Source: Dictyostelium discoideum (Eukaryota). Taken from it: a stretch of DNA of 64,000 bases. Positions 1 through 59,797 of this stretch are shown one piece after another; position 1 is the stretch's first letter; each line of letters starts with the position of its first letter. The notes below the pieces were generated by a model that saw only the letters and a list, made by a program, of their open reading frames with translations, was not told the DNA's origin and searched no databases. The DNA lies in the NCBI GenBank assembly GCA_000004695.1, contig CM000151.3, positions 2,112,001-2,176,000 of the forward strand. Reading direction: 5' to 3'. The position numbers were made by a program, and so were the translations under genes.

Positions 1-1956
<1,956 letters not shown>

Positions 1957-2191: not shown

Positions 2192-2527
2192 TTAATTAAG
2201 ATTTATTATTTGCTGATTTAATTGTTGAATTTGTAATTTAAGATGTTGAATTTGTAAAAATAATTGTTGATAATAATTTCGTATTGGAATACTATTATTA
2301 CTATCGTTATTATTTTTATTATTATTGTTGTTGTTATCATTATTATTATTCTTGGTAATATCTAATAAATTTATATATTGAGTTGTTTGAATTGTATGCA
2401 TTTCTTTTGAAATGGATTTAATTTGATTTTCTTTTACTAAAATTATATGTTTAGTATTCACTCTTTTTATAAAATTATTATATTGAGATGGTAACTTTAT
2501 GTGATTTGGTAATTGATGAGACTTCAT
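2192..2527 (-). CDS. Small basic/coiled-coil protein, tandem family copy 1 (about 111 aa; MKSHQLPNHIKLPSQYNNFIKRVNTKHI...NYYQQLFLQIQHLKLQIQQLNQQIINL)
   Basis: Complete ORF. The true ATG is at MKSHQ; the ORF-track start at 2536 is a TTG alternative start. About 90% identical at protein level to the ORFs at 3195..3599 and 5004..5300. Internal poly-Asn; C-terminal heptad-like Q/L repeat. Confidence 0.6.
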   Translation of the reverse strand: MKSHQLPNHIKLPSQYNNFIKRVNTKHIILVKENQIKSISKEMHTIQTTQYINLLDITKNNNNDNNNNNNKNNNDSNNSIPIRNYYQQLFLQIQHLKLQIQQLNQQIINLN

Positions 2528-3084
2528 ATGATTCAAACATTTTATATATAATGGATCATTAATATCTATTTTATTCTCTTGAAGTTCATTTAATTTCTAT
2601 TTTTTTGGAGAGAAAAAAAAAAAAAAAAAAATAATAAAAGAAATTTTTTTAAATTAATAAAAAAAAAAATATACATACATTATATCCAATACAAAATAAT
2701 TTTATAATTTCTGTATTATTTTTATTATCACTTTGTTTTTCACTATTTATTGAGTATGTTGGAATTTGTATTTTGTGTGTATTAATTTTAAAGAAAAAAA
2801 AAAAAAAAAAAAAAGTATTTTAAGTAGTAGTAAAATCTGAAAGTTTAATATTGATTTCATATATAAAAAACTTTATTTTTAATGTTTTTTTTTTTTTTTT
2901 TTTAATATTTACACAATTTTTTTTTTCAATGGAAATTTACAAAAAATAAAAAAATAAAAAAAATCTAAAAAAAAAAAAAATCTGAAAAAAAAAAACATAA
3001 ATGATGCCATTTTTTTTGAATTGTAATAAAAAAATCCAAAATCGAGATCTTTGCAAACTTAATTTTCCATTCAACATTTTTTTT

Positions 3085-6812: not shown

Positions 6813-7708
6813 AAAAAAATAAATAAATAAATTATTGTAAATAATAAGTATACTTTTTTTTTTTATTACTATTACTATTAGTATTATTTATTTTTATTTT
6901 ATTTTATTTTATTTTTATTAAATTTTATTTTATTTTATTTTAATTTTTTTTTTTTTTTAAAAATAATAATAATTAATTAATTTTTTATTACAATAGAAAT
7001 ATCAATTATTATAAATTAAAATAAGTTGTTTATTATAATGATTCTCATTGTTTTTTTTTTTTTTTTTTTACACTCAACTGAAAAATTGTTTTTTTTAAAT
7101 AATTACACGATTGTGTTATGACATCTTTTACAACAAAACACATTATTGTATAACCTTTTAGGATTTTTTAAATTATAGTTATTCGAAATATTATTATTAT
7201 TATTATTATTATTATTATGTTATCTTCATATGTATACATTTTTAAAATTGTAGGGAAATGGGGATAGAGTCAAAAATGAAATAGAAAGAGGGTTATGTTT
7301 TAATTATAATAAATAGGAAATGTTGGTTATTTTATTACAATTTCAGTTATTTTGTTTTTTTGTTTTTTTAGTTTTTTTTTTTTTCAATAAAATTTTTATT
7401 AAAAAATTCTAAAAAAAGGAATATATCCATAGTTTGTTCCAATATTTTATTTTCATAAAAAAAATTGTTTTATTTTTTTTTTTTTAAACAGTTTGGATTT
7501 TTAAACACCTTAACACACCCAACAAATAAAAAAATGGTTTTTTTTTTTTTTTTTTTTTTTAAAATTTTATTTTAATTTTATTTTATTTTTTAAAAATAAA
7601 AGTTATCAATTTGTAATTTAATTCATTGTGTTATTATTATTGAAAATACATATATATTTTTTTTGTTTTTTTTTAAAATTGATCTGATCTGTTAGAACTG
7701 CAGATTGT

Positions 7709-11897: not shown

Positions 11898-14411
11898 TTA
11901 CTCTAAATTTTTAATTAAATTATAAATTAAACCAGATTGTAAAATTGATTTGCAAGTATTTTCTTTTGCAGTTTTTTTATTTTGACCAGATTTAAAATGA
12001 GAATGTGCAGCTTCTTTATTTATATAGAAAGTAGCAATAGCATTAAAAAAACCAGAACCATCAGGAGTATGTTCCCAAGCTATACCAAAATCAAATGTAT
12101 GTCTTTTAACTTGAATAACCATCTCTTGAACCAAAGCACTAGCAGAAGCAAAATAGGAATTTGTATCCATTTCTTCATCAACTTGATTAACTTGAGTTGT
12201 ATAGTTTTGTTGTTTTAAAGATATTGGAAGTTCACCAGTTTTTAAGAAATTAATAGCCTCTTCTAAATATCTTTCTTGATTTTTAAAGAACTCATAGATG
12301 TTATCCTCTCTTGGATCATCAACTTTGACAATACCATAGAAATAACTATCCCTATTTCTTAATCTACCCCTTGATTGAATATTAGCAGTAACGGTTGTTG
12401 GTGGATCTAATCTAATTACAATATTACATTCTGGTACATCGAATCCTTCTTCCACTACACTAGTTGCAACTATAACATTACATTGATCACTTCTAAACTC
12501 TTCTATAGCCTTCTTTTGAGATGATATTGACATTCCACCAATAGAACCATGACCAACTACTAAATTTGGTTTAATAAAAGAGAATCTATCACCCATTCTT
12601 AATTGATCCAAAAGTGAATAAACTTTCTTTGCTACGTCTCTTGTTTTTACAAATATGATTGCTTTTAAATCATCACTCTTTTTTTCATCCAAAATTTGTA
12701 ACGCAATCTCTAACTTTGAAATACTATCCGCAATCTCTTCATCACAAGGTAACGAATGAACCATTGCTAAAATCTCTGATTGAAGTTCTACATCATCAAT
12801 ATTTGAAATCTCTTCAATTAAAAAGGATTTTAAATTTAAACCAACTGGAATTGCACTACCAAACATTTTAAAATTAATAAAATCATTAATTTTTTCAAAA
12901 AATGATGATAAAAACTTATTTAAATTATGATTTTGAGTACTACTATTGGAACCACCACCACCACCACCAACACCTAAACCTTTTAAAGTATTACTATCAA
13001 TTACTGAAGTAACAGAATCAAATAATTCTTGATTATTACTAAGATTTGGTTTATATTTTGAAATTAAATCTTTTAAGATTTGAATTGAGTGACGTTCTAA
13101 ATTATTTGTTGGAATTGGTATGATTTTAATATTCTTTTGATTAATATATGGAATGATTGATTGATTAGTTGGTTTTATAATTTCACAACGACTAACTTTT
13201 GAAATTAATTTCAAGGATAATAAAGTATTGAAAAAATCTTTTTTACCAGCTGGTGACGCAGTTAAACCTAAAATCTTTGGATGACAAATCTCTGGAATCG
13301 TATTTAATTTATCACGTAATAATTTAGCGAATGAATGCTCTTTAACTATATGATGAGCTTCATCGATAACAATCAAACAGAAACTAAGTATATTTAAATC
13401 ACCATTTGATAAAAGTTTATTGAATAAATCACCAATCACCACCAAAACATCAAATCTTTGCTTCAATTGAACTGGTTTAAATGTTTCACCGTGAGCTGAT
13501 AACACCTTTAACCCCGTCTCTGTCTCTATTACGTCTGATTGTTGGATTACCAATGGGATTCTATCTACAATGAAAACTATTTGCTTTGAAGGATTCAATT
13601 GCTTCATTTTCTTTATCACCAAACATGATATTAAAGTCTTACCTAAACCAGTTGGTAAACAACATATTATATCCTTTTCCATTGATTTTCTATAGAGTTC
13701 ACATTGATAATCTCTTGGTTTACTCTTATTCATCTCCATTGGTTTACCATCATCACCCTGTTGTAATGTTTTTATAATTGGCATACCAATTGTTTTAATT
13801 TGACCGAGTGTAAGATTATTACAATTTTCATCTTGAAAAATGCTATTCATAGTATCAACTCTTTGTTGTAAATCACCAAGTGTTCTCTTTAATCTTTCAA
13901 TTTCATTATCCTTTTCCATTTGAGTTGGTTCATTAAAATGTAAATAACTAAAACCACCACTTAATAAATTTCCATCATTTTTTTGTTTTTCAATTAATTC
14001 ATCTTTAATTTTATTTTTATCTATACTAATAAATTTTGAAAATAATGAATCTATTGATTGTTTTGTTTGATATGTTAATTGTTGTGGTTGTTGTGGTGGT
14101 GGTGATTCTATTTCTTGTTCTTGTTGTTGTCTAGTTTTTTTTTGTTCTTGATATTTATTATTTAAATCTTCTCTTCCCTGTTGATTTAAATAATTTAAAA
14201 CTTTTATTGCGCAACATGATTCTGCTGTTTTTTTATTTTTATACCAATCGGAATATACAATTTTATTGTTATGTTTTGAATTAATTTCACCAACGCGTAT
14301 GTGTGTACGATATTCTCTCTCGTGGTCAGGTCCTCTACACTCTGAATGGTATACTGGTAAATATCCTATTCTTTTTTGTTGAATATAAGTTTGTAAATCA
14401 TTTTTAGTCAT
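11898..14411 (-). CDS. Dicer-type DExH/DEAD helicase flanked by N- and C-terminal dsRNA-binding domains (837 aa); architecture as described for the Dictyostelium RNAi suppressor HelF
   Basis: N-terminal dsRBD (DLQTYIQQKRIGYLPVYHSECRGPDHEREYRTHIRV...KKTAESCCAIKVLNYL). Helicase motifs I CLPTGLGKT, II VIDEAHH, III LTASP, VI QSRGRLR. C-terminal dsRBD-like (YFASASALVQEMVIQVKRHTFDFGIAWEHTPDGSGFFNAIATFYINKEAAHSHFKSGQNKKTAKENTCKSILQ). Confidence 0.8.
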   Translation of the reverse strand: MTKNDLQTYIQQKRIGYLPVYHSECRGPDHEREYRTHIRVGEINSKHNNKIVYSDWYKNKKTAESCCAIKVLNYLNQQGREDLNNKYQEQKKTRQQQEQEIESPPPQQPQQLTYQTKQSIDSLFSKFISIDKNKIKDELIEKQKNDGNLLSGGFSYLHFNEPTQMEKDNEIERLKRTLGDLQQRVDTMNSIFQDENCNNLTLGQIKTIGMPIIKTLQQGDDGKPMEMNKSKPRDYQCELYRKSMEKDIICCLPTGLGKTLISCLVIKKMKQLNPSKQIVFIVDRIPLVIQQSDVIETETGLKVLSAHGETFKPVQLKQRFDVLVVIGDLFNKLLSNGDLNILSFCLIVIDEAHHIVKEHSFAKLLRDKLNTIPEICHPKILGLTASPAGKKDFFNTLLSLKLISKVSRCEIIKPTNQSIIPYINQKNIKIIPIPTNNLERHSIQILKDLISKYKPNLSNNQELFDSVTSVIDSNTLKGLGVGGGGGGSNSSTQNHNLNKFLSSFFEKINDFINFKMFGSAIPVGLNLKSFLIEEISNIDDVELQSEILAMVHSLPCDEEIADSISKLEIALQILDEKKSDDLKAIIFVKTRDVAKKVYSLLDQLRMGDRFSFIKPNLVVGHGSIGGMSISSQKKAIEEFRSDQCNVIVATSVVEEGFDVPECNIVIRLDPPTTVTANIQSRGRLRNRDSYFYGIVKVDDPREDNIYEFFKNQERYLEEAINFLKTGELPISLKQQNYTTQVNQVDEEMDTNSYFASASALVQEMVIQVKRHTFDFGIAWEHTPDGSGFFNAIATFYINKEAAHSHFKSGQNKKTAKENTCKSILQSGLIYNLIKNLE

Positions 14412-14876: not shown

Positions 14877-17800
14877 TTACTTTTTTTGTTTTAAATGATT
14901 AATAATCATTTGATTTATAATTTCTAAATTATTTTCTTGAATGGTGTCAGTATTACTATTACTATATTTTGTAATTATATTATGAAGTTGTAAATATTTA
15001 TAAACACAAGAAGAATTATTTGAATCTGTTAAAATTTGAATCCAATCATTAAATTCAATCTGTTTACAATTAAATTCACATTTTAATATTTGATTAATCT
15101 GTTGTGAATTTATATTATTATTATTACTATTATTATTATTTAAATTAATTGTATTAAATAATAATTTTCCTTTTTCATTATCATGCTCATAATAATTTTG
15201 ATTATTTATTTGATTTATAATTAAATTTGATAAATGATTAATTGGAATGGTTGGATATGATGTAGAAACGTTTGGATAAAATCCAATTGAATGACAAGAT
15301 TGTAAAAATAATTGTAATAATTCATTTTCATTTCCTAAACCAGTTTCAATATTTGAAAAAATTGGAGGAATTCTTATCATTGTTGATGGTATATTAAATT
15401 TTATTGAACAATCTTTTAGAAAATGTTCAATTAATAAACTACTTTGAATTTTTCCACTTGATAATGGTAATTTTTCAATTGATTCAAAATTTGGAATTTC
15501 AATACTATTATATTCATTTTCATTAATAAATTCATTTGATATTCCTAAATAAATATATATTGATGATATATTTATAATTGAAATTTTATTATTATTATTA
15601 TTATTATTATTATCATTATTATTACAATAACCATTAATTATTAAAGATTTAATTAATTCTTTAACCAAATTTAATTCAGTTTCATTAAATTCTTGTTCAA
15701 ATAAAATTGAATCTTGAAATGAATCACTTGAAACAATAATTATTAAATTTATATCATTATTTTTGATGAATAATTGATTATAGTCTTTTTCTGATGAAAC
15801 TGATATAATATTAATTTTTGAAATTTCATTTTGATTTAAATTAAAATATAATTGATGGTACTTTAGGCTTTGAATTATTAAATCAATTGATGTATTTAAA
15901 CAATAAACTATAGAACAATTTGAATCTTTAACTAAATTAAATAATAAATAAGTACTTAAATAACCACCACTTGAAAAAGGGAATAATATTCTTTTATTAT
16001 TTTTACTAGTACCACCATTTTTAGTAATATTTACATACGATGATGTTGATGATGAAAATTCATTACCAATAACTTTTAATTTAATTTGTTTTTTCCAAAA
16101 TTTTAAATTTTTAACATTATTATTTTTACTTTTACCCCCAATGAATGAACCAGTTTTAATATTTTCATTATTATTTGATTGTTGATTACTATCTTTTATT
16201 TTTTTATTATCAATAGCTGTAATGATAATTTTAATTACTAAAGAGATTGTATTATTTTGAATTTGTTGAATTGTAATAATATTTGGAGAGATTTCTTTAT
16301 CTATCCAATTTTTTAATTGAACAGTTAATAATGAGTCTGCACCATAATCAAGTAATCGTAAATCTTGATTAATTTTAGATGATTCAATTGAAAGGAATTC
16401 TGATATTTTATTAATGAAAATATCTTTAATATTTAATGAATCTACAACTTTTCCACCACCACCACTGCCACTACTACTATTGGAACCACCACCACCACCA
16501 TCGATTGAATTAATAATAAAATCAAATTTTTGTTTAGGAATTTGAGCATTTACTTTAAAAGCTGGAAAATTGAAATTACAAATTAAAAGATTTGTTGATA
16601 AATGTTGATTTTGAATTTGTAAATCTAATGAACCTAAAATTAAATTTGTAGAGATTGGATTTAAACCTTGACCAACTAACATTTCACCAACTGATTCAAA
16701 TCTTGATACAAATCCTGCATCACCTAAAGAACCATAATTTGTACAAATTGATGGTAACCCAATTGATTTTCTAAATCTTGATAATGAATCTAAAACATTA
16801 TTCGCACAAACATAAGAACATTGTTTTGAAGAACCGATGATTGAAGCAATTGAAGATGCCATTACAAATTGTTTTAATTTCCAATTCCTCTTTATCGATT
16901 GATTATGTAAATTAATTGCACCAAATGTTTTTGCACCATGTGAAATATCCAAACTTTCCATATCAATTTTATTAACTTTTCTAGAAACTTGTTGAAATGC
17001 AAAATGAAAAATTGAATCAACATTATTTATCAATGGATTATCTTTTAATATTTGATCGATTGATTCATTTACTAAACTTTCATTACAAATATCAATACTC
17101 TTAAAATGAAATCTAATATTTGAATTATTGTTTACTAATAATTCTAATTCCCATTTCATTGGTGATTTTGAAAATATTATAATATCTTTAACACAATCTG
17201 AAAATTTAACAATCCATTTTAATATCTCTAAAACTATCCCCGTTTGACCTGTAACTAATATTGTTGAACCTAAATTATCATTATTTATTTTATAATTTGA
17301 TTTTAAAATTGGTTCCTTAACATCAATACTACCACTACCACTACTACTACCACTACTACTACTACTATTGAAATTATTATTTTCAATTAATTTATTTATT
17401 AAATTAATATTATTATTTACAATAATTTTACCAATATGTTTACGTTCATTTATAAATTCAATTGCTTCTTTTATTTTTAAATTTGAATATTCATTAATTG
17501 GTATTAAATTTAATTGATTATTTTCAATTGCATTTGATATTTGTAAAAATAAAATTTGAAGTTTTCTTTTATTTATAAATAATAATTCAACATTATGATA
17601 ACCATAATTATATTTGAATTTACTAAAATCTATATATTCATTTGGATTTAAATGAGTGATTGATAAATCAACGATTCTACCACCACATTCCAAACATTTG
17701 AAATTTGAATCTAAATAATCACTTGATAATGTATTCAATATTAAATCAACACCTTTTTTATTTGATCCCAATTGTTTTAATTTTAATTTAATTTGTTTTA

Positions 17801-19037
17801 CATAATCTTTATTTCTTGTTGAATAAATTCCAGTGATAAAATCACCATAGGTGTCAATAAGATATTGCTCTTTCTCTTTTGAACCTACTGTAACGAATAG
17901 ATGTGATTTATGACCTTTCCATTTCAATATATTCAATGCAGATAAACCAACACCACCAGTACCTGAATGAATTAAAATTGATTCATTATCTTGGATATTG
18001 AAATTACCAATATTGAATATTGAATATAAAGATGTTAAATACACTGCTGGTATTGATGCTGCCTCTGAGTGGCTTAAATTGGTTGGTTTCTTTACAATGT
18101 AATCTTTATCAATGATAATATGAGAAGATGACGAATCGAACGCAATTCCATAAACTTCATCACCCACTTTAAATTGATCTTCACCACAATCTTTTCCAAC
18201 CCTTGTAATGATACCAGAGAAATCAATACCAATCTCTGGATTGTTAATATCACCTTTACGATTACAAATCTCTGGCGGAACCAATCCACAATATACTAAA
18301 TAATCTTTATAATTCACTCCTAAACTTAATACATTCACTTCAACCTTATTCGATTTAATAATTTCTTTTCTCGATTTTAATTTATATTCTAAATTTGATG
18401 TTAATTTTAAATAAACATTTGAAAAAGAATCATTACTAACACCAATACCATATTCAAATGAATTTGATTTAAATGTATTGATTAAATTTTTAATTGATTC
18501 TTTTTTATATCTTTCATAATAAATTTCATTATTCATTATTATAAATTCCTTTTGAGTATTAATAGTCTCATCAATTAAAGAATCAATTTTTGAAATTAAA
18601 TTTAAATTTTCAATTGATTGTTGATCAAAATCTATATAGAAAAGTTGTAATTGTTCTGAAAACTCTTCAAAATACTTTGCAGCTCCAATAACTGATGCTG
18701 ATAAATAATTTTTACCATTATTTACATTGGTTGTAATTAAAACATGTTTACATTTTAAATTATTTGATGATAATAATCTCTTATTAATTTCAATAAATTC
18801 AAATGTTACCAATTTAAAATTTTCAAAGTTTAATTGTTCAATAGGTTTAATAAAATAAATTATTGATTTATTTGTAATAATATTTGATTCTTCTAATTCT
18901 ATAAATTCTTTAATACTTGAAATTTTAATAATAATTTTAAATGAATAAATTGATTCTAACATTTTAATAAAATGATTATTATTATTCTTATTATCTTTAT
19001 CAATTTCATTACAAAATATAATAACATTATCTTCATA

Positions 19038-19118
<81 letters not shown>

Positions 19119-22100
19119 ATTAATTTCTAGAATTGATGGTTTTTTACAATGAATTAAAAAAGAAACTGATTCTAATTCTTTTGACATTATTATATATTTA
19201 AAATTATGATTTGTTAATAAATCGAACCAAGATTGTTGATTCATACAACAACTATCTTTTCTGATATCAGTATCTTGAAATGACCACCACTGATTGAAAA
19301 CACCAAATACATTATCTAGAATTATTGAATTAAATGGTGGTTCTATAAATAATAATTGACCATTTGGTACAAGAACTTTATAAATTTGATCAATTGAAAA
19401 TCTAATATCTTTAACCACATGTAATACATTTGACATTATTACATAATCATAATATGAATATTTCAAATTTTGTTTTTCAATTAATGGTTCTTCTAAATCT
19501 AATGAACGATAAATTATTTTTATACCAAATTTACCACCATCTAAATCTAAATCATTATTATTCTCATTATTATTATTATTATTATTATTGTTTATAATTT
19601 TTGATAATTTTAATTTTGCATCTGGTATGAATGACGTTGAAATATCACTCCATGTATATTCAATATCAATTTGATTAAAAACATTATTACTCTCTTCAAG
19701 TAATTGAGTAATTTTATTTAATACAACCATTGATAATGAAGAAACACCACCACCAAATTCTAAAATTCTTATTGTGATTTTCTCTTTTTTCAATACCAAT
19801 GGTTTAATAGATTCTTTAATAATTTCAGCAAGTAATTGATGATTTTTTGCAACAAATTCAGTATCTGAATAAAATTTATCAAGTAAACCATCTTCAAATA
19901 AAATTTGTGGACTATCTAAATTTGAATCATTTTCATTTTCAAATGGAAATAATTGTTTTGAAATTACTCTAGTTGATCTCTTTAAAATTTTATAATTATT
20001 ATTATTTTCCATTTGTTTTTTTAATTCTTTAAAATTATTATTATTATTATTTTTATAACCAAACATTTTTATAGTTTTAAAAACTGATTTAAATAATCTT
20101 TCATATTGAATTGAATTTTCTAAATTTTTATTAATAAAAATTGATTTAAAATTTAAAAATAATTGATCAATTGATTGATTTTCAATTTCTTTAATTGTTA
20201 TATTTGAATTTCTTTTATTAATATTTAAAAACAATGAAGATGATATAAAATTTTGATAAATTGAAATATTTGAACTATAGATATCTTTTGATTTAAATTG
20301 ATCAGATTCATAAAGTGATTTAAATGATGAAGGTGCACCAATTGGTGAATCTCTTGGTTGTAAATATCTTGAATATACTAAATCAATTGGATATTCAATT
20401 TCTAAGGGATTTTTAACTATTTTTAATGATTTACAAATTACTCTTTCAATTTCAATTAAAATCGTACCATCTTTTAACATTATAATAATTGATGCTAAAT
20501 ATGAATTTCCTAATCTTGATTTAAATTTTGAATAAACGAAAATACTATTATTACTACTATTAATATCATTTGTTTCATATACTTGTAAATTTGATGAATA
20601 ATATTTTAATCCTTCAATTTTATGAAAAACTAGTTGACAATTTTCTTGAATTAATGCAATCATTCCATGTAAACAACTATCTAATAATTGTGTTTTAAAA
20701 AATGATTTTGATGTTGATGAATTAACAGTAACTTCTGATAAAGAACAACTATCACCTAAAAAACACTGAATAACACCTTGAAATTCATCATTATAAGTTA
20801 AACCTGTTTTTGATTTTATATGTTGATATAAATCAATTCTTGATATTTTTGTTTTATTACACTTTTTTGAAATTATTTCTTGTAAATTTAATTTTTTATT
20901 ATTATTATTATTATTACTATTATTATTATTACTATTATTATTATTTAATAATTGAAAATTAGCAATACATGATTGTACCCATTCATTTGATTTATTATCT
21001 TTAAAGTGATAATAAAGTTTAAATTCAGTTTTACCAGTTTGGAAAACATTTGTTTGTAAACATTGATTAATACCATCTATTAAAATTAATGGTGATTTAA
21101 ATTCCATTGAACTAATAGTCAAATCTTGTGATGGATATAATTTCAATAGATTATCAATGTAACCACAACCTGGGAAATAGTATTTACCATTTACAATATG
21201 ACCTTTAAGATATTTGAATGGTTCTTTCTTTATATCAATAAATGTTTGATATGATTTAACATTTGATGAATTATCATAGTTTGATAAACCAAGTATATCA
21301 ATTGGTGGTCCCTCAATTCTATGTTTTTGTTGAATCAAATCTTCTTTCCAATACTTTTCATCATCCCATTGATAATTTGGTAATGGTTGTGGTTGTGGTT
21401 GTTGTAGTGGTGGTATTACTGTGTGGTTGTGGTTATTAATACTACCACAATCAAATTGTGATTTAAAATTAATATTATATCTATTTTCACAATAAAGTTT
21501 AGCAATTGTTTTTTGAATCTCCATAGTATCATTCTTTTTCTTATGAAGTGGTGAATAAATTGATATTTTCCCACTAAAATAATTTGTTGATACAGGTATC
21601 ATTTGTTTTAAATAAAATTGTAATGTTGGATGTGGTGCTAATTCAATGAATACAATATCAGTTCCCAATTTATTTATTTCAATATGTTTATATAAATTTG
21701 ATATAGTTTGTGAAAATTTAACTGGTTCTACTATATTATTATAAATATATTCAGAGTTAAATGGTGTTGTTGTTGTTTCTACATTATTATTATTATTATT
21801 ACTATTATTATTGCTATCATTAAAATTATTATAATATAAATTTGTTGTAACAGTTGAGAAAATTGGTATTTTTGGTAATTCATAATCAATATTTAATTTT
21901 GAAATATCATCTTTTACTATTTTTTGATTTGAAGTATGGAAAGATGATAATGAAGCTAACATTTTTGAGAAAATTCCTTTATCTTTTAATTCATTTGATA
22001 TTTGATTTAATTGTTGTTCTTTACCTCCTAATACAATTGAATTTGGTGAATTGTAACATGCAATTTCAATATCTGGGTATTTAGTTGAATAATTTGATGA

Positions 22101-22898
22101 TAAATAATCTTCAGAGCTAATATTAACTGATAACATTCTACCACCATTACAATGTGTTTGAATTTGTGCTAATGATCTATGATAAATTAAATAACATAAA
22201 GTATCCAATGTAATCATACCTGAGCAATAAGCTGCTGGAATCTCACCTAAACTATGACCAACTATAAATGATGCTTCAATACCCCAATGTTTATAAAATT
22301 CAAATAATGATATAGCTAACATACACATTATTGGTTGTGCGATTGTTGGATGTTGAATACTAATATCATCATCATGATCAGTAATTGATATGAATTTTTC
22401 AAAAACTGAATAACCATAATATTTAAATAATTTATTATCAAACATATTGATTGATTGTTTGAAAATTGGTTCACTATTATATAATTCCATTGCCATTCTA
22501 CTATATTGTGAACCTTGACCTGCAAATACAAATACAACTATAGGATTCTTACTATGAACCATTGACATTGTTGATGACTTTGAATTTAATGTTTGAACTC
22601 TATTTAATTGTTCTTTCTCTTCTCCTTCTCTTTCTTTTTCTTTTTCTTTTTCTTTTTGTGATTGTTTTTGTTTATTAAATTCATCCCAATTTGAAACCGA
22701 AAAAATTACTAAACGTTGATAAAGTGATAAAGATTTATTAAAAATTTGATTTTTAACAAATTCATTAAAATTTATTTTTAATTGAAATTCTTCACTTTCA
22801 ATAATTGATTGATATTTCTTTAATGATAAAGTTGAATTTGCTGAAAAAGGTATTAAATACTTTTTTGGTTGACTATTATCATATTGCTGCTGTCCTCG

Positions 22899-22960
<62 letters not shown>

Positions 22961-24353
22961 GATTTTCATTATTTTTAAATTGTGATAAAATTAAACAACA
23001 ATTTGAACCAGTAATACCAAAACTATTGATTAACATTGTTATTTGTTTATTTGTATTAAATTGAATTGGTTCAGTTACAACTTTTAAATTCCATTCATTA
23101 AATTTAATCATTGGATTTGGTTTATTAAAATTAATATTTGGAACAAAGTAACCATTTTTAAACATTAAACAACATTTAATTAATGATGCAACACCCGATG
23201 CTGCCTCTAAATGACCAATTGAGCTTTTAATTGACCCAATTAATAATGGTTGTTGAGTTGTATTATTATTACTACCACTACAACTACCACTACCAATAGC
23301 AATATCATTTAATTGTTTAAATGAATTTGAAATTGCTTCTAATTCAATTGGATCGCCAGTTGGTGTACCAGTACCATGTGCTTCAATATAATCGATATTA
23401 TTGAATTTAATTTTACCATTGGTTGATTGAATTGCCATTTTAATATTTTCACACTGTGATATTGATGAAGGTGAAAAAAAGTTTTGTTTATCTTTTAAAC
23501 CACCACCATCAACATTTGAACTTGCACCATTGATAATACAATAAATGGTATTACCATCTGATAATGCTTGTTTTAAACTTTTTAAAACCACAATTCCAAC
23601 ACCTTCTCCTCTGACATATCCATCAGCACTTTCATCAAATGTCATACACCTTGCTGTACCATTAGTTGATTTACTTAACATATTTAAATGGGTGAATGAT
23701 TTTGAAACGTTTGTATCCAACAATAAATTTACACCACCGACAATTGATAAATTACAATTGTTCTGCTTACTGAATTTAATTGATTGGTAACCCATTTTAA
23801 TAGCATTCAATGATGATGAACATGCTGTATCAATTGTAATTGATTCATTACGAAAATCAAAACAATATGATATACGATTTGAAATTGAATGATTTGTCAA
23901 CCCGAATATATTAGATTTGTTATTATTCATTTGATTTTGTTGTTGATTTTGATAATCATTAGTTGAACAACCAATGAAAACTGATGTATTTGAACCACGA
24001 ATTTTCATTGGATCAATTCTTGCATCTTCTAATGCTTCCCATGTACATTTTAATAATAGTCTTTGTTGTGGATCAATGCTTGGTGCTTCTGATGGATTAA
24101 TACCAAAAAATAATGGATCAAATGATTTCCATTCATCAAGTGGTAATAAACCAGCATTTCCATTTGAAATTTCACCCAATTCATTGAAATTATCACTCCA
24201 TCTTTCTCTACTTTCAATAATACCATCAAATCCATTCATTAAATTATCCCATAATTCAATTGGTGAATCATTTGATTTAGAAATATCTCCCGATGGTAAT
24301 CTAAATCCAATACCAACAATTGCAATTTCATCATTATCATCAATAATATTATT

Positions 24354-24400
<47 letters not shown>

Positions 24401-24401
24401 T
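14877..24401 (-). CDS. Type I iterative polyketide synthase, 3174 aa: KS - poly-Q linker - AT - DH - C-methyltransferase - ER - KR - ACP - about 450-aa C-terminal domain of unknown function
   Basis: KS (IAIVGIGFRLP...DTACSSSL...HGTGTPTGDP...GHLEAASG). AT (GQGSQY...GHSLGE). DH-like (HxxxG...GHIVNGKYYFPGCGYID). MT (LEFGGGVSSLS, SAM-binding). ER (LIHSGTGGVGLSA). KR (ILVTGQTGIVLEIL). ACP (LDYGADSLLTVQLKNWI). 22-Gln tract from (CAA)n between KS and AT. Confidence 0.92.
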
Positions 24402-25293
24402 ATTTTTGTTATTATTATTATTAAATTTATAAATGAGAATATTAGTAAATTAATAATTTTATATGTTTTAAAAAAAAAAAAAATTTTAATAATAAAATAA
24501 AATTAAATTAAATATATATTAATAGTTAATTAATTAATCTTACTTTTAAACCTTTTTAGAAATTTATCGTTTTTCAAATAAAATTTATTTACTAAAAAAA
24601 CTTCATTTTATCTCTTTATATCTGTTGCAGAATATACAAACTCAAATGAATGAAGAAAAAAAAAAAAAATTGAAAAAAAAAATTGTAAAAAAAAAAAAAA
24701 AAAGAATATTAACAAAAACACCAAATCGACACAAAAAAAAAAAAAAAAAAAAATCTCATTTTTATATCATTTTATGTATGTTTGGGTGCTCTTTTTTTCT
24801 TAAAATAAATAAAATTAAATAATTAATAAAAAAAAAATGAATAATAAAATGAAAAAAAAATAAAATAATGGTGCAGATCTAATCTTTTTAAACCACAAAA
24901 TATAGATTTTTTTTTGAAAATTATTTAATTATCTATTGTAAAAAAATTACACTTTAAAATTTCATTTTTTCATTCAAAAAAAAATAACAAGTAAAATGTT
25001 AATTATTAAATAATTAATTATTAATTACCTTAAAAATCACACCGGTTTTTTCACATGCAAAAAAAAAGAAAATGCTAAAAGTAATTTTTTTTTTTTAAAA
25101 TAATAACAAACTCCCAACTTCCGACACTTTTAAAACCCAAAAACATTGGGGAGTTAAAAAAAGAAAAATGATTTGATCTCTTGGAAGTTTTCAAATTTAT
25201 TTTTAAAAGGAAAAAAAAAAAAATAAAAAAAGATTCAGACTTTTTTATACTTCCATTTACGATTGGGTGAACTTAATCCTGGTCCCAATGTTG

Positions 25294-52738: not shown

Positions 52739-53144
52739 ATGACAGTAAAACCCGAATTTATATTCAATGAAAATGTTCAATATAATCAAATAAAGTGTAA
52801 TACTAAAACTATTGAATCTTTGAAACTATCATCATATCAATATATTAAATTGTTTATTTCAGATAAACATTGTTTAATAGTTGAAGTTATACCAGATGTA
52901 ACCATTGAAGACAACACCATATTATTATCAAATCAAATAATTAATAAAATTGGTAATAAAAATCAAATAAATAGATATAGTTTTAATTTTGAACCAATAG
53001 AAATTATATCAAATAATAATAATAATAAAAATAAAAATAATGTCACAATTACAATAAAAAATATTAATAGCCCATATAATGGAAAGATTTTAAATAATTC
53101 AATAAAAAGATTCTTTTCATATAAGCCAGTAAGTTTTTATATAC

Positions 53145-53175
<31 letters not shown>

Positions 53176-55055
53176 TATAATTTTAACATTTTCATTAACA
53201 ATAATAATAATAAAATTAAAAATTATAGATTATTAAAGATTGTGAATATTTATGTCCTATGGTCGGTAATATGTGCATATTTAGGGTTGTAGATATTAAA
53301 AGAAATAATAATAATAGTAATAATAATAATAATAATTATGGTGATAATGATAGTTCCTTTGAACATATTCAAGAATTTTTAGAAAATAATAATAATATTA
53401 ATGAAATTATTATAATGGATGATAATACCCCAGAAAATAAAGAGTTGAATATAGAGTTAATCGATATAAAAGAACAAGTTGAACAATTATCAGAATTTTT
53501 AAAATTAAAATTTAATACCTCATTTAGTAACAACAACAACAAATATAGCAATCAATTGAATTTCTTAAAATCAAAAGGTATTTTAATTGATGGACCAGAA
53601 GGCACAAGCAAATTACAATTAATAGAATATATAGCTCAACAATATAACTACAAATATTTAAATTTAAATGAATTAGTTAATGGTGGTAGTGGTGGTGGTG
53701 GTGGTGAACAGTTAAACTCAAAAGAACCAATGATTTACATATTAAATAATTTAGATTCAATTGTTGGTAAAATCAGTGATAATGAGAATAGTTACCAAAA
53801 GAAAGTTATTCAAAGATTAACAAATTTCATTGATCATATAAAGTCTAATGAAATTATTTTATCAACATGTACATCAGTTGAAAATATTGACCAATCAATA
53901 ACACGTGCTGGTAGAATTGATAAATTTATACATTTAACAATTCCAACACAATCTAAAAGAATGTTAATCCTTTCAAACCTTTTAAAGAATACACCATTAC
54001 AATATGACACCAATAATAATAATGATGATATTGATCAGTGTAAAATAAAAGATAAAGAACAATTTATAGTTGAATTAAGTAAAATTACACCAGGTTTCCT
54101 TTTTAAAGATTTAACAAAATTATGTAGAACTGTATCATTATTAACAGTTTCAAGTTTTGAAGAAGAAGAAGAAGAAGAAAATGAAAATGAAAAAGAAATT
54201 AAAATTTCATTTAAAATATTTAAAGAGGCATTAAAATTTATTAAACCATCAACGTTAATAAATTTTGATGTTACAGTTCAAAATGTTAAATGGGATAGAA
54301 TTGGAGGTTATAAACAAGTTAAAGAAAGATTTAGACAATTAATTGAATGGCCATTAAAATATCAAGATACATTCAAGAGATTATCATTGAATAATTCATC
54401 AGGATTATTATTACATGGTCCATCTGGTTGTGGTAAAAGTTTAATGGTTAAAGCAATTGCAACAGAGATGAGTATAAATTTCATATCGATTAAGGGTTCA
54501 GATATCTATTCTAAATGGTTAGGTGAAAGTGAAAGAATCATAAGAGATTTATTCAAGTCTGCTAGATTATCGTCACCGTGTATCATGTTTTTCGATGAAA
54601 TCGATTCATTGACACTCTCAAGAGGCAGTGGTGACGATAATGAGGATGGCGGTACATCCAAACGTATCCTTAGTCAATTGTTGAATGAAATGGATGGTAT
54701 CCAAGTAAAGAGTCAAATATTCTTAATTGGTTGTACAAATTCAATTCAGTCAATCGATAGTGCTCTATTGAGACCTGGTAGATTCGAATCATTAATTCAT
54801 ATAGATTTACCAAGTCTTGATGATCGTTTAGATATTTTAAATGTACTATCAACAAATTCTTTAAATTTCAATAAAGATGAAATCACCCAACAAGTATGGT
54901 TAGATATCGCTACTCAAACCAGTGGTTTCACAGGTTCACAATTATATGATCTTTGTAATCAAGCTGGTATCATTCAATTAGAAACTGACATCGTCAACTC
55001 TCAATCAATTTCAAAACAATCCTTATATGAAAGTTTAAATAAACTTAAAAATTAA
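52739..55055 (+). CDS. Two-domain AAA+ ATPase (degenerate D1, canonical D2) with N-terminal domain; 2 exons (52739..53148, 53229..55055), about 745 aa
   Basis: GTAAGT...TATAG intron, phase 0. D1 GILIDGPEGTSKLQLI (non-canonical Walker A). D2 GLLLHGPSGCGKSLMVKAIATE...IMFFDEIDSL...SQLLNEMDG (Walker A/B, SRH). Pex6/SPATA5-like layout. Confidence 0.75.
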
Positions 55056-55089
55056 ATAAAAATTAAATATTTATAAAAAAATTATAAAA

Positions 55090-57650
55090 CTATGTTTTTA
55101 TTTCTTTGTTTTTTCTTTTTAATAAATTGAATTAAAGAATTGATAGTATTACTTTGAATTTGTAGAATGGTTACTAAATTTATACCAATTTCTTTATCTA
55201 TCCAATTCTTTAATTGAGCAATAAATAAAGAGTCTGCACCATAATCCACAAGACCAATATCTAAATTTAGTTTAATTTCTTCAATTGATAATAACTCTGA
55301 TATCTTGGAAATAATTAACCACCACTCATATTAGATTGCTTTGAAAATTCTGTTGCTGATTCTTCAATAAGATTTTCAAATTTAATTGAGATTGAATGTT
55401 GTGGATTATTTTTAAATATATTAAAATTAAATTGGTTGAAAGTCTTGATTTTGAATTTGTAAATCTAATGAACCTACTTTATTCATTGTGACAATATTGT
55501 AACCTTGAGCCTCTAATGTAACTGCAATCGATGCATTTCTTAAAACTAAACCAGATTTAATTGAACAAATTGATGGTAATTTAAATCTGATACGATTTCA
55601 TTTAATTTTTGTTCATTACCTGCAATGACAATTGATGTCGGTGAATTGTAACATGAAATTTCAATATCTGAATATTTTTAAGAATAATTTGATTTAAATT
55701 TAGATTCATCAATGTTTATTGATAACATTCTACCATTAGCATGGGTTTTATTTTGTGCAATTGATCTATGATAAATTAAATAACATAAAGTATCCAATGC
55801 AATCATACCTGAACAATAGGCTGCTGAAATTTCACATAAACTATGGCCAACTATAAATAATGCTTCAATTCCCCAATGAGTATATAATTTAAATAATGAA
55901 ATTGTTAACATGCAAACTGATGGTTGTGCAATTGTTGGTTCATGAATTGATTGAGTATCAGTTGTTCTTAATTTCTCAAAAACAGAATAACCATAATACT
56001 TTGACAATGCTTCATTTAATTGATAAATTGATTGTTTGAAAATTGGTTCGTTATTATATAATTCAATTGCCATTGTATTATATTGTGAACCTTGACCTGC
56101 GAATACAAATATGGTAATTGGTTTCTTTCTTTTAATTGATATATTTGCTGATTTTGAATTTGATGTTTTAAAATATCCTAATGATGGTGTTTTAAATTGA
56201 TCCCAATTTGATGCAATTATTACAGATCTTTGAAATAATGATCTTGATTTCTTTAAAATTTGATTTTGAACAAATATTGAAAATTCAACAAAATCAATAT
56301 CTTTTGAAATTAATTGTTGTTGATAATCTTCCAATGATTTTGTTGAGTTTGCTGAAAATGGTACTAAATATTCTTTATTTTTATTTTTTATGGTGTTAAT
56401 AGACTTTTCAGGAATTGTTTCTTTAAATTCGGATAAAACTAAACAACAATTTGAGCCAGTAAAACCAAAATTATAAATTACAATTGAAAAAGGTTTATTA
56501 TTATTATTAAACTTTGAAAATGGTTCTGTAATAACTTTTAAATTCCATTCATCAAATTTAATCATTGGATTTGGAATTGAATAATTTATATTTGGAACCA
56601 AGCTTTTATTAAAAAGTATTAAACAACACTTGATTAATGATACTACACCAGATGCAGCTTCAGTAAGACCAATCGAACATTTAATTGAACCAATTAATAA
56701 TGGATTTTCTTTTGAACGAGTGCCATCATTATTAAAAACCATTGATATACTTTTAGTTTCTAATATTTGTAGCTTGGGATAATGGTGCATAAAAATTTGA
56801 TTTATCCTCAAGACCGAAACCATCGACATTTGAATTTGCACCTTTTAAAATACAATAAATTTTATCACCATCTTTAATTGCTTTTGTTAATTTCTTTAAA
56901 AGTACAATACCAGTACCCTCTGCACGAACAAGGCCATTGGCATCTTTATCGAATGGTCTACAAACCCCAGTTTTACTTAACATATTAAGGTATGAAAATG
57001 CTTTAATATTTGTTGTATCCAGAATTAAATTTACACCACCAACAATTGATAAATCTGATTTACCTGTTAAAATTGATTGACGACCTAATGTAACTGCAAC
57101 ACCTGATGATGAACATGCAGTATCAACAGCCATTGACTCACCACGTAAATCAAAACAATAGGAGATACGATTAGCTGTTCCATGTGCATATGTACCAAAA
57201 ATATTTAAATATTGTTTATTTTGATTTACATTGGATTCTCTATATTCTGATGTTGAACAACCAACAATTACCGATGTGTTTGATGCTCTTAATTTCATTG
57301 GATCAATTCCTGCATCTTCAAATGCTTCCCATGTACATTTTAATAGTAATCTTTGTTGTGGATCAATAGTTGATGCTTCTGATGGACTAATACCAAAAAA
57401 TAATGGATCAAATGACTTTAGTTCGTCAAATGGTAATAAACCTGCATATCCATTACTTATTTCTCCCAATCTACTGAAATTATCACTCCATCTCTCTGTT
57501 GTTTTTACAACACCATTAAATCCATTCATTAAATTACTCCATAACTTAATTGGTGAGTCATTGTTTGCTTTTTCTTCGCCACTTGGTATTCTAAATCCAA
57601 GCCCAATAATTGCTATATCTTCATTATCATTATTTATAGTAAACTTCTTT
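55090..57650 (-). pseudogene. Relic of a type I PKS paralogous to 14877..24401: KS (no ATG, frameshift at about 56800) + N-terminal half of AT (GHSLCE) + tail of KR + ACP; DH/MT/ER and the C-terminal domain are deleted
   Basis: Minus-strand frames: [26 protein letters not shown]...[11 protein letters not shown]... (KS, 60-70% identical to the intact PKS). ...FVFAGQGSQYNTMAIELY...GHSLCEISAAYCSG... then stop. 55480-55570 VGSLDLQIQNQDF. 55130-55330 [45 protein letters not shown] (ACP). Confidence 0.8.
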
Positions 57651-57984
57651 TTTTTTTTTTTTTTGATTTATTTACTTTTTCTTTTTTTTTTTTTTTTTTT
57701 TTTTTTTGGTTTAATATCTTCTAAAATAATAAATAACAATAAATGTTTTTAAAGGAAAAAAAAGCTAATAATTTAATGATTATACAAATCAAAAGAATAA
57801 AAAAAAAAACCAAATGTATTTCCTTACATTATGTGATACCAATTTGATAACTTTTTTTTTTAATCAAATGGGAAATAAATAAATTATAAATTAATATTAA
57901 TTTTTTTAAATAATATTTTCAAATGAAATATAAGGTTCATACAATGCCCAATTTTTTACTACCCTCCCTTTTTTTTTTTTTATT

Positions 57985-58010
57985 TAATTATTATTTTGGG
58001 GGTTGGGTGT
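57985..58010. promoter_or_regulatory. G-rich element TTTTGGGGGTTGGGTGTTTGTTT about 340 bp upstream of the PKS relic
   Basis: GBF-type G-box-like. Isolated in an A/T-rich spacer. Confidence 0.3.
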
Positions 58011-58267
58011 TTGTTTATTAATAAAAATGATTTTTTGTACAAATTGTCATTATTTTTACTTTTAATTTATTTAAAAAAAATAAATTTATCCTTGTGGTAA
58101 GATATAATTTCAAATAATGAGTCGTTAAAAAAAAAGTTGCTTTTTGAAATTTTTAATCTTATTTTATCTATTATTTTTTTTATTTTATTTTATTTTATTT
58201 TTTTGTTTTATTTTACTATTTTTATTACGTGAATATTAGTATTTTAATTTATTTGTTATCATCATTT

Positions 58268-58334
<67 letters not shown>

Positions 58335-58340
58335 CCTTAC

Positions 58341-59350
58341 CTATTTTTTAAAAAAGAAATCGTTTAAAATGGCCAAAGTATTAGCTGGTGATTTTACAGT
58401 AAAAGATTGTGTAATTCTTGGGTGATTAGCAATTTCATAATCATTACCACCCAAAAAAGTTTTATCACCAAAAAAGTAGAGTGTTTTAAATTCATCCTCT
58501 GGTAAATGACGTAAACAATAAGTTTTATCCCAACCAATTGGAAAAACATCAAAACTTATTTGACCACCAATTGAATATTGTAAACCAAAAGATTTAAATT
58601 CCTCTTTTAATATTGATACCATTGTTGATCTAATTTTGTGTTCCTGAAAAAAAAAAAAAATTATTATTAAATTTAATATATATATATTTAATCATATTTA
58701 AAAGTACAATAAACCTACCAAATCATACTTTTCAAATTCTTCACGTTCTTGTTGGGAACAATTTCTACCAATTGGCGAGATATTAAGCATACCATTTCTA
58801 AATTCAACAAAGGTACCTCTTTTTATTGGAATATCAAGATCAGCTACATAATGTAACACAAAATTAATAAATTTTTTGATATTTTCTTCACCTAAATACT
58901 TTTTAATATCCTAAAATAATATTTAATTATTATGATGCTATATATTTTATTTATGATTACTACTATTAATATAATAAAAAATTTTAATAATTACTTGAAT
59001 TTCTAATAATGAACCATCTTTATATGCTATTAAACCATTTTCTGCAAATACATAATCAAAATCATTAATAAAATTTTCACCTAATTGCTCTTTAATTTTA
59101 TTAAAATTAGAGCCACCAACAACACCTATCTTTATTTTTGTTCTTAAAGATGCCAATAATTCTTTCATTTCATTGGTGATTGCCTATTTATTTTTTAAAG
59201 CATTTTTATTATTTTATTTTATAAAAATGTTAACCAATCATTTTATTAATTTATTTTATAAAAATATAAAATACGGATACTTGCATTTCTCGGTTTAGTT
59301 AAAGTATCATCCACATCAAACAAACATATAGTGTTTTTATTTTGTGACAT
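58341..59350 (-). CDS. pmmA: Phosphomannomutase; 4 exons (about 59350..59285, 59183..58995, 58910..58709, 58643..58341)
   Basis: [22 protein letters not shown] | [35 protein letters not shown]...[10 protein letters not shown] | [64 protein letters not shown] | [47 protein letters not shown]...[16 protein letters not shown]... Aligns colinearly with PMM2. Intron 1 uses a GCAAGT donor. Confidence 0.85.
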
Positions 59351-59797
59351 TTCAAAGGAATTTTTGTTAATAAATCTCACAAATCAGATTAATCAAAACA
59401 AATGAAAAAAAAAAAAAAATGAAAAAATAAGAAAATAAAAAAAAAATTTATAACATAAAAAAAAGGAAAAAGGAAAAATTGAAAAAAAATCAACATAAAA
59501 AAAAAAAAAAAGGAAAAATTAAAAAAAATTATTGCGTTGTTGCCAATGGGAGCATGGAAAAAAAGGTAAAATAAAAAAAGAGGTGACTAACCGAGCAGCG
59601 CCACATAGAAATAAATAATAAATAATTAATTATTTTTATATCCAGCCAATCTTAGTTGTTTATTTTAAAGAAAAAGATTTTTTTTTTTTAAAGATTTTTT
59701 TTTTTCCCAACACCCAATATATTTATAGTTTTTGAAATTTTTATTTTTTTTTTTTTTTTTTTTTTTATTTTTCATTTTTTATTTTTTTTTATTTTTA

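Follow-up and report, generated by a model that had tools for sequence, protein, structure and literature searches.

A unitary pseudogene represents the loss of a single-copy gene that is still functional in sister species, the textbook example being GULO of primates. The genome of Dictyostelium discoideum contains 40 genes that putatively code for a polyketide synthase (PKS), together with five pseudogenes that are interrupted by stop codons (PMC9618038), and rapid birth and death is known for this family (PMC3188802; PMC9618038). The window analysed here, a stretch of 64,000 nucleotides of D. discoideum AX4 DNA, holds an intact PKS gene, pks15, the length and gene ID of which are documented (PMC3188802, Table S6 and supplement file 4), and a PKS relic that lies next to an AAA ATPase gene with published chr2 coordinates (PMC3188802 supplement):

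14877..24401, minus strand: pks15 (DDB_G0273007), an intact 3174-aa PKS with the architecture KS-AT-DH-CMT-ER-KR-ACP plus a 430-aa tail (Pfam).
52739..55055, plus strand: AAA ATPase DDB_G0272777, convergent neighbour of the relic and synteny anchor, to which P0123 is 100% identical.

The position of the AAA ATPase gene was mapped from L001, and an upstream exon is present (738 aa). While pks15 is named in the supplement of PMC3188802, no PKS fragment is given there at the locus of the relic, which seems to have no pks number, going by the chromosomal order of the pks13-pks16 IDs (PMC3188802 supplements); no mention of DDB_G0272777, DDB_G0272779 or DDB_G0272781 was found in the literature searched. 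As argued below from sequence comparison, the relic is very probably an ortholog, now a pseudogene, of a lineage-specific iterative type I PKS and not a decayed copy of pks15. It marks a recent loss of this gene from D. discoideum.

From 57649 to 55082, the minus strand contains a KS, the first two thirds of an AT, the last residues of a KR, a KR-ACP linker and an ACP. A tblastn search with the 3174-aa PKS (14877-24401, minus strand) as query and the 64,000-nt window as target recovers four minus-strand pieces, all colinear and far above chance, and so bears out the same-orientation KS/AT/KR-tail/ACP relic that an earlier note on this DNA had described:

57637-56759, minus strand: piece 1, PKS residues 19-321, 62-63% identity, E 2e-106.
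56715-55582, minus strand: piece 2, PKS residues 381-805, 54-55% identity, E 1e-115, in another frame than piece 1.
55588-55445, minus strand: piece 3, PKS residues 2542-2599, 45% identity.
55318-55120, minus strand: piece 4, PKS residues 2661-2726, 62-67% identity, the ACP with DYGADSL.

The relic itself is made up of four parts:

56762..57646, minus strand: N-terminal part of the KS, with the active-site Cys (DTACSSS) kept.
55582..56759, minus strand: C-terminal part of the KS, KS-AT linker and first two thirds of the AT, with three point lesions.
55319..55579, minus strand: last residues of the KR and KR-ACP linker, in three reading frames.
55082..55318, minus strand: ACP remnant, with the DYGADSL serine motif kept, as the earlier note had it, and no in-frame ATG.

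Two corrections to the first description concern its 3' end. The retained 3' part does not jump to the last 20 aa of the KR-ACP linker, as it starts at the last few KR residues, about 100 codons ahead of the ACP, and the distance to the stop codon of the AAA ATPase gene, previously put at about 35 bp, is 26 bp between stop codons.

The identity of the relic becomes apparent when the same locus is inspected in related species. In the clade of D. discoideum, D. citrinum, D. dimigraforme and D. firmibasis, a PKS gene is flanked by the AAA ATPase DDB_G0272777 on one side and by a phosphomannomutase gene on the other, and in five related genomes this gene is an intact, single-exon PKS of 2125-2299 aa, at the same position as the relic and convergent on the AAA ATPase:

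D. cf. discoideum (L009, GCA_054859235.1): intact PKS of 2150 aa.
D. citrinum (two genomes): intact PKS of 2125 aa.
D. dimigraforme: intact PKS of 2132 aa.
D. firmibasis (CM069770.1): intact PKS of 2299 aa.

In D. dimigraforme, D. firmibasis, D. citrinum and D. cf. discoideum, 27-45 bp separate the end of the intact gene from the AAA gene. The alignment of AX4 positions 55559-57659 with these genes has two gaps, a large one and one of about 89 bp, and a nucleotide identity of 82-94%. No PKS is found at the corresponding position in D. purpureum. The architecture of the orthologs is KS-AT-DH-(weak ER)-KR-ACP, with the ACP as C-terminus and no Pfam match for a C-MT. They keep the KS Cys/His/His residues and the AT GHSxG and AFH, DH HxxxGxxxxP and ACP DSL motifs, and their pairwise dN/dS is 0.19-0.23 over about 2090 codons. 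Synteny and identity establish that these genes, intact and under purifying selection, are the orthologs of the relic. Because of this selection, the ancestral gene can be regarded as functional before its loss.

These orthologs also bear on the origin that the earlier note had proposed, in which the relic is a segmental copy of the neighbouring pks15 that then lost 6.5 kb with the DH-MT-ER-KR block and the post-ACP domain. Such an origin agrees with the location of the two loci, which have the same orientation, lie 31 kb apart and are colinear with 45-67% amino-acid identity over the matching segments, and with the growth of dictyostelid PKS families by local duplication (PMC3188802), of which the tandem copy in D. 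dimigraforme is an instance. It is nevertheless very unlikely, as five genomes have an intact ortholog at exactly this position, with 82-94% nucleotide identity to the relic, while pks15 is only 53-54% identical to these orthologs at the amino-acid level, and its C-MT and 430-aa tail are missing from them. Part by part, the relic is closest to the orthologs: the N-terminal part of the KS has 63% amino-acid identity to pks15 versus 92% to D. firmibasis and 81% to D. dimigraforme (93.8% at the nucleotide level to D. cf. discoideum); the segment 55582..56759 has 54-55% to pks15 and 75-79% to orthologs (91.7% at the nucleotide level to L009, D. cf. discoideum); and the ACP remnant has 62-67% to the pks15 ACP and 81% to D. 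dimigraforme. The split from pks15 would therefore be older than the divergence of D. discoideum and D. firmibasis, and pks15 is best regarded as a remote paralog and not as the parent of the relic. Since orthologs are intact in five genomes, any duplication that separated the pks15 and relic lineages predates the D. firmibasis split and yielded no dead copy; a recent duplication from pks15 is, on these comparisons, already refuted. A protein search for D. discoideum paralogs with the conceptual KS-AT of the relic returned proteins that are all of 1200 aa or less, a range that does not cover full-length PKSs.

Of the earlier interpretation, a dead PKS relic with a big internal deletion stands, and it is the segmental duplication that gives way to a positional ortholog. 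The figure of about 6.5 kb missing is valid only with pks15 as yardstick, being about 3.7-4.2 kb against the orthologs. Similarly, the DH, the ER-like region and most of the KR were rightly listed as deleted, but the C-MT and the post-ACP domain were never lost in the relic because the orthologs have neither. The general theme of PKS birth and death is a fair one, D. dimigraforme carrying a tandem second copy of the PKS that is 89% identical at the amino-acid level.

Measured against the intact orthologs, the AX4 relic has lost about 60% of the gene. Three of its lesions mark the former start and the two main breaks:

57647..57649, minus strand: former start codon, ATG changed to AAG, with the downstream frame otherwise kept.
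56760..56761, minus strand: junction of an 89-bp frameshifting deletion, with the KS HGTGT (first catalytic His) region gone.
55580..55581, minus strand: junction of the large internal deletion, with the dinucleotide AT as 2-bp microhomology.

At the start region, ATG AAG TCT AAT GTA AAT AAT GAT in L009 corresponds to AAG AAG TTT ACT ATA AAT AAT GAT in AX4, and no in-frame ATG precedes the KS, which had correctly been described as lacking one. A 1-bp deletion after the ATG, considered with D. firmibasis as reference, was rejected, since the closer outgroup D. cf. discoideum has its in-frame ATG at another place, which corresponds to AAG in AX4. Further downstream, the frame is broken where a frameshift near 56800 had been reported, but the cause is the 89-bp deletion after 56761 that takes the HGTGT motif: in a three-way nucleotide alignment, the 89 bases, encoding ...ECHGTGTPTGDPI, are present in D. 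dimigraforme and D. firmibasis and absent from AX4. The second KS His is changed to Leu (GH>GL, codon 56667-56665). In the AT, the motif GHSLGE indeed reads GHSLCE, with the Ser kept and Gly replaced by Cys (codon 55836-55834), and 52 codons past it a nonsense change (TCA > TAA at 55680-55678) ends the frame early, as had been noted, although AT homology extends 33 codons beyond this in-frame TAA, to 55581.

The large deletion took the C-terminal third of the AT with its AFH histidine, the DH, the ER-like region and nearly all of the KR. Its size depends on the reference, being 3688 bp when the D. dimigraforme gene is taken, 4213 bp for D. firmibasis and about 3749 bp for D. cf. discoideum. 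Ortholog codons are kept in AX4 through 726 and then from 1969 onward; AFH, at ortholog codon 742, falls 15 codons into the lost block, and the Pfam match of the KR covers codons 1804-1974. Within 55319..55579 there are AX4-specific deletions of 12, 3, 17 and 31/34 bp, and it is because of the 17-bp and 31/34-bp ones that this part is read in three frames. A 7-bp deletion in the ACP changed the C-terminal tail and shifted the stop codon from 55100-55098 to 55084-55082 (eight-sequence alignment). Read as a PKS, the relic thus has no start codon, one nonsense codon and five or more deletions that shift the frame (of 89, 17, 31/34 and 7 bp and of about 3.7-4.2 kb). The Cys of the KS Cys-His-His triad is present and both His are lost; the Ser of the AT Ser-His dyad is present and the AFH histidine is deleted; and the ACP, although its DSL serine is present, is in a frame that differs from everything upstream, is without in-frame ATG and has a frameshifted C-terminus. 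Judged from these lesions, the AX4 relic cannot make a polyketide. An assembly artefact was rejected because an independent D. discoideum assembly (GCA_054883475.1) carries the same relic with a single substitution, and rescue by splicing was ruled out because the catalytic residues are physically missing from the DNA itself. In a check for exaptation as ncRNA or tRNA, no tRNA and no Rfam family was found within the whole 64-kb window.

Three different relic alleles are present within D. discoideum. In two diverged D. discoideum assemblies (L007 and L008, with assemblies matched to strain names by inference from PMC12745789), the relics are different and shorter: L007 keeps about 310 bp of KS and the ACP only, and L008 the KR tail and the ACP only, the KS-AT part being deleted almost entirely in both. 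Each has private lesions, and no disabling lesion is common with AX4. The start codon is ATC in L007 versus AAG in AX4, ancestral sequence is still present in L008 at the 17-bp and 34-bp sites, and the ACPs of the diverged alleles have their own frameshifts, a Ser>Pro change and a 36-bp deletion.

It has also to be considered whether the remnant is still useful, be it as a KS-AT protein cut short, as an ACP on its own or as a short PKS made by splicing. Two long frames do remain open in the relic, one of 258 aa that begins with ATG (56753-57529) and one of 387 aa (55678-56841); the ACP serine motif is intact, the dN/dS of the AX4 branch is well under 1, and on another D. discoideum assembly gene callers give an ACP gene of 160 aa as well as a PMM-KS-AT gene of 848 aa. 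However, the start codon is lost and the ACP frame has no ATG; the catalytic histidines of the KS (both) and of the AT are missing, as is the KR; a low dN/dS is expected under recent inactivation; and the 848-aa model, in which the relic is joined to an upstream gene that has nothing to do with it, seems to be an artefact of annotation. Moreover, L007 and L008 have lost nearly all of the KS-AT part, and the lesions of these diverged alleles, which include those in the ACP, therefore indicate that no part of the relic is conserved as protein within the species. A retained function of this kind is extremely improbable, and the truncated KS-AT or stand-alone ACP product once thought conceivable has to be given up on these same grounds.

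With pseudogenisation of an ortholog as the preferred explanation, substitution patterns give an indication of when function was lost. On the AX4 branch, 28 non-synonymous and 27 synonymous changes correspond to a dN/dS of 0.28, a value distinct both from 1 (p=6e-6) and from 0.5 (p=0.03), and on the D. cf. discoideum branch 17 non-synonymous and 36 synonymous changes correspond to a dN/dS of 0.13. The AX4 value, for which 55 substitutions were polarised by parsimony against a single outgroup, points to a recent, possibly independent decay. We infer that AX4 inactivation took place within roughly the last 10-20% of the branch that began when the cryptic sister species split off, the D. discoideum species crown being at roughly 40-45% of the branch. 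Decay may have begun separately in the lineage of AX4 and in those of L007 and L008. That the same PKS was lost and eroded independently in at least two to three lineages of D. discoideum sensu stricto, while the cryptic sister species, D. citrinum, D. dimigraforme and D. firmibasis all kept it whole and under constraint, is a proposal whose chances we put just short of even. Alternatively, a single ancestral deletion could have come first, with nested deletions added later in the lineages of L007 and L008, a history that is possible, though we would hold it only tentatively. One loss is more parsimonious than three, and the AX4 deletion interval is fully contained in the L007 and L008 deletions, the right breakpoint of L008 lying 14 bp from that of AX4. 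On the other hand, the regions kept by two alleles have no common disabling lesion, as seen at the start codon; the dN/dS of the AX4 KS and AT is about 0.25 versus about 0.5 expected if the gene had been dead since the species crown (p about 0.01); and over the shared 306 bp of KS there is 1 private substitution in AX4 versus 6 in L007 (p=0.125, not significant alone).

In the model of pseudogenisation by lineage-specific decay, the ancestral gene of the D. discoideum/citrinum/dimigraforme/firmibasis clade would have encoded a KS-AT-DH-(degenerate ER)-KR-ACP protein of about 2100-2300 aa, the function of which was presumably lost in D. discoideum sensu stricto, with erosion of the gene by deletion-biased decay. 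In AX4/AX2, this erosion would comprise the ATG>AAG change at the start, the 89-bp HGTGT deletion, the replacement of the second KS His by Leu and the AT nonsense codon, together with an internal deletion of about 3.7-4.2 kb at the 2-bp microhomology that would have removed the AT histidine, the DH, the ER-like region and the KR, and four further small deletions in the linker and the ACP. Proximity to the 3' end of the convergent AAA gene may be the reason why the adjoining 3' 300-470 bp persist in every allele.

A dead PKS in a family with fast birth and death is expected and carries little mechanistic weight, being ordinary biology that is well documented by comparison. The value of the relic is that of a clean, datable case, in which the architecture of the ancestor is available from five relatives, the AX4 relic is young and three decay alleles exist; the fresh tandem duplication of the same gene in the sister species D. 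dimigraforme adds to its value as an example. The locus is also a warning that gene callers make spurious proteins of this relic (the 160-aa ACP and the 848-aa PMM-KS-AT chimera). A polyketide pathway that is impossible in laboratory D. discoideum strains is probably present in D. citrinum and the cryptic sister species. If the losses were independent, they would suggest species-wide relaxed selection on one polyketide, or selection for its loss, and would provide a simple presence/absence marker as well as a candidate metabolite that sets D. discoideum chemically apart from its look-alike sister species.

Compared with the systems described so far, the relic is most like the intact orthologs, with which it shares position, orientation, 82-94% nucleotide identity in every kept segment and an ACP end near the AAA stop codon. 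Yet these are complete single ORFs with a dN/dS of about 0.2 and all catalytic motifs, whereas AX4 is without the catalytic histidines. Like the relic, pks15 is an iterative type I PKS of Dictyostelium on the same strand with colinear KS, AT, KR-tail and ACP. Its amino-acid identity to the relic is 54-63%, and a C-methyltransferase, a clearer ER and a 430-aa tail after the ACP distinguish it from the lineage of the relic, in which they were never present. The five known PKS pseudogenes (PMC9618038), of which the relic may be one, are likewise disabled members of the large, fast-turnover PKS family of social amoebae; by their description they are stop-interrupted ORFs, whereas the relic has also lost about 60% of its length. 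With an intact syntenic ortholog between the same flanking genes in five genomes and ortholog constraint (dN/dS 0.19-0.23, intact motifs), the relic is a candidate unitary pseudogene. It shares with unitary pseudogenes the intact syntenic ortholog in relatives, the multiple disabling lesions and the deletion-biased decay, and it differs from a typical one in having three different decay alleles under one species label.

The window belongs to chromosome 2 of Dictyostelium discoideum AX4, and the minus-strand relic (57649-55082) has the following neighbours in it:
11898-14411: helicase of 837 aa (DDB_G0294407)
14877-24401: pks15 (DDB_G0273007; name from the PMC3188802 supplement), intact PKS of 3174 aa
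50746-52524: ANAPC8 gene, the upstream anchor
ending at 55055: AAA ATPase gene DDB_G0272777 (chr2:2151170-2153486; PMC3188802 supplement)
58341-59380, minus: phosphomannomutase gene, adjacent to the relic on its upstream side

When the window is searched with pks15 by tblastn, four colinear minus-strand matches appear downstream of the AAA gene, and because E-values are as low as 1e-115 (the best match) the PKS remnant reported in the earlier note is real:
57637-56759, minus: N-terminal part of KS (KS-N), pks15 aa 19-321, 62-63% identity
56715-55582, minus: C-terminal part of KS, linker and AT, pks15 aa 381-805, 54-55%, different frame
55588-55445, minus: end of KR, pks15 aa 2542-2599, 45%
55318-55120, minus: ACP, pks15 aa 2661-2726, 62-67%

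Three-frame translation agrees with that note: the KS lacks an in-frame ATG, the AT has GHSLCE as its motif and contains a TAA (55680-55678), and the ACP serine motif (DYGADSL) is present. The strand opposite KS-N is open both in the relic (57231-57752, plus, 173 codons) and in pks15 (23974-24432, plus, 152 codons), and translating these antisense stretches gives two plainly homologous sequences; the ORFs look like a side effect of the codon composition of KS and not like a gene.

The origin of the relic was assessed at syntenic loci fetched via two anchors, the AAA ATPase orthologs and the 90% cluster of ANAPC8, which gave nine informative loci. In five genomes an intron-less, intact PKS converges on the AAA gene and ends 27-45 bp from it: D. 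dimigraforme (2132 aa), D. firmibasis (2299 aa), D. citrinum (two genomes, 2125 aa) and D. cf. discoideum (2150 aa; 856-7308 in L009, the locus from GCA_054859235.1). By blastn, AX4 55559-57659 is 82-87% identical to the PKS of D. firmibasis and D. dimigraforme, 83-89% to that of D. citrinum and 92-94% to that of D. cf. discoideum, the alignments being interrupted by one large gap and one of ~89 bp. The relic had been proposed to be a duplicate of the neighbouring pks15, but its KS-N protein is 92% identical to D. firmibasis versus 63% to pks15, and the orthologs themselves share 53-54% amino-acid identity with pks15. Their Pfam architecture is KS-AT-DH-(ER below threshold)-KR-ACP, with the ACP at the extreme C-terminus and no C-methyltransferase, whereas pks15 also possesses a C-MT and a 430-aa tail, and its ER is clearer. 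The supposed loss of the MT and post-ACP domain is thus not a loss, as this lineage never had them. Because of the identity, synteny and Pfam architecture of the orthologs, the relic is a dead gene orthologous to them, from a separate PKS lineage, and not a decayed pks15 copy. The orthologs are live genes: pairwise dN/dS is 0.19-0.23 (~2090 codons), and the KS Cys/His/His, AT GHSxG and AFH, DH HxxxGxxxxP, KR VTGQSG and ACP DSL motifs are kept. D. dimigraforme carries a second, tandem PKS immediately upstream of the ortholog (19207-22306 of its locus, L002). The last 876 residues of this second copy show 89% amino-acid identity to the first, and it represents a recent duplication within the lineage that is dead in D. 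discoideum. Among the 120 protein matches listed for a KS-AT query none exceeds 1197 aa, although gene calls of 2100-2300 aa are present at loci from that collection; full-length PKSs appear to lie beyond that protein search, and its top matches for megasynthases are therefore fragments.

Alignment to the orthologs also bears out the proposal of a dead PKS with an internal deletion. The AX4 lesions, in order along the gene, are:
57649-57647, minus: start codon ATG to AAG
next along the gene: 6-bp in-frame deletion
after 56761, minus: 89-bp deletion, removing ...ECHGTGTPTGDPI
56667-56665, minus: second KS His to Leu
AT: GHSLGE to GHSLCE
55680-55678, minus: nonsense TCA to TAA in the AT
between 55581 and 55580, minus: large deletion with a 2-bp 'AT' microhomology
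linker and ACP: deletions of 12, 3, 17, 31/34 and 7 bp

The large deletion measures 3688 bp against D. dimigraforme, 3749 against D. cf. discoideum and 4213 against D. firmibasis, and takes out the AT histidine, the DH, the ER-like region and the KR except its final few residues. Whatever is transcribed, the relic encodes no KS histidines, AT histidine or KR, its KS and ACP frames have no usable start, and it does not work as a PKS. An assembly error is excluded since GCA_054883475.1, an independently assembled D. discoideum genome that is probably AX2-214 from PMC12745789, contains an identical relic apart from one substitution. The deposited annotation of that assembly makes two protein genes of the relic (L001 12344-12916 and 12940-16503, equivalent to L010 6873-7445 and 3286-6849; window ~55082-59300), a 160-aa 'ACP' and an 848-aa chimera of the KS-AT remnant with the phosphomannomutase upstream of it. 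Both are almost certainly gene-caller artefacts, which will spread into protein databases.

Two further alleles, L007 and L008, come from assemblies labelled D. discoideum that probably represent CR116C and OT3A, tropical isolates in PMC12745789; they are ~1.5-1.8% divergent from AX4 in neighbouring genes and have a phosphomannomutase-AAA gap of only ~1.5 kb. In L009 coordinates the alleles retain:
AX4: 847-1753, 1840-3038 and 6788 to end
L007: 769-1167 and 6991 to end
L008: 6802 to end only, the left break lying upstream of the gene

Neither L007 nor L008 derives from the other because each has sequence missing in the other, and no shared disabling lesion was found in regions kept by two alleles. 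The start codon has become AAG in AX4 and ATC in L007. Private to L007 are a TGA, a +1 insertion and, within the ACP, a 36-bp deletion (~7090-7130); L008 has private -4 and +2 indels (a 2-bp insertion lies just upstream of the ACP motif) and a phosphopantetheine Ser>Pro change (GADPL; ACP motif at ~7180), and is ancestral at the sites of the AX4 17-, 34- and 7-bp deletions. The L007 ACP deletion, the L008 Ser>Pro and the private frameshifts rule out the conserved stand-alone ACP entertained earlier. All alleles keep their final 300-470 bp, the part beside the AAA gene, whose stop is 26 bp away; this may reflect constraint from the 3' end of this convergent gene.

Base substitutions accumulate at a low rate in D. 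discoideum mutation-accumulation lines, slippage and indels at a high one, and the many indels versus few neutral substitutions in the relic fit this pattern. To date the loss, substitutions were polarised using the D. citrinum sequence as outgroup. After it parted from D. cf. discoideum, the AX4 branch acquired 28 non-synonymous and 27 synonymous substitutions (dN/dS 0.28; p=6e-6 against 1, p=0.03 against 0.5, not different from the family-wide 0.2), and the D. cf. discoideum branch 17 and 36 (dN/dS 0.13). If dN/dS was 0.13-0.2 for as long as the gene functioned and 1 thereafter, the AX4 copy would have been dead for roughly 10-17% of its branch. Because the crown of D. discoideum falls at about 40-45% of that branch, this timing, on small counts, favours an AX4 inactivation after the split from the two diverged lineages, and thus independent losses. 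One ancestral deletion, with nested deletions later in L007 and L008, is less probable but still a live alternative given those small counts: the AX4 junction lies inside the deletions of both shorter alleles, and the right break of L008 is 14 bp from it. The dating and the allelic series depend on genomes that became available in 2025 (PMC12745789), a study mentioning PKSs only as a large orthogroup.

In D. purpureum (L004 10001-16967) the AAA gene is followed directly by the saposin/GDSL-lipase gene, and the PKS, phosphomannomutase and MFS transporter are absent there; this block either entered the D. discoideum-firmibasis clade by insertion or disappeared from D. purpureum. The three genes move together in the clade having the block, and the phosphomannomutase gene is a second copy in D. 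discoideum, pmmA being on chromosome 3 (PMC3188802 supplement).

In all, the relic is of an ordinary kind, and a well-resolved case of it. Species-specific turnover of the PKS family is known (PMC3188802), D. discoideum is reported to have about 40 PKS genes and five pseudogenes (PMC9618038), and the relic adds one more member to that class.
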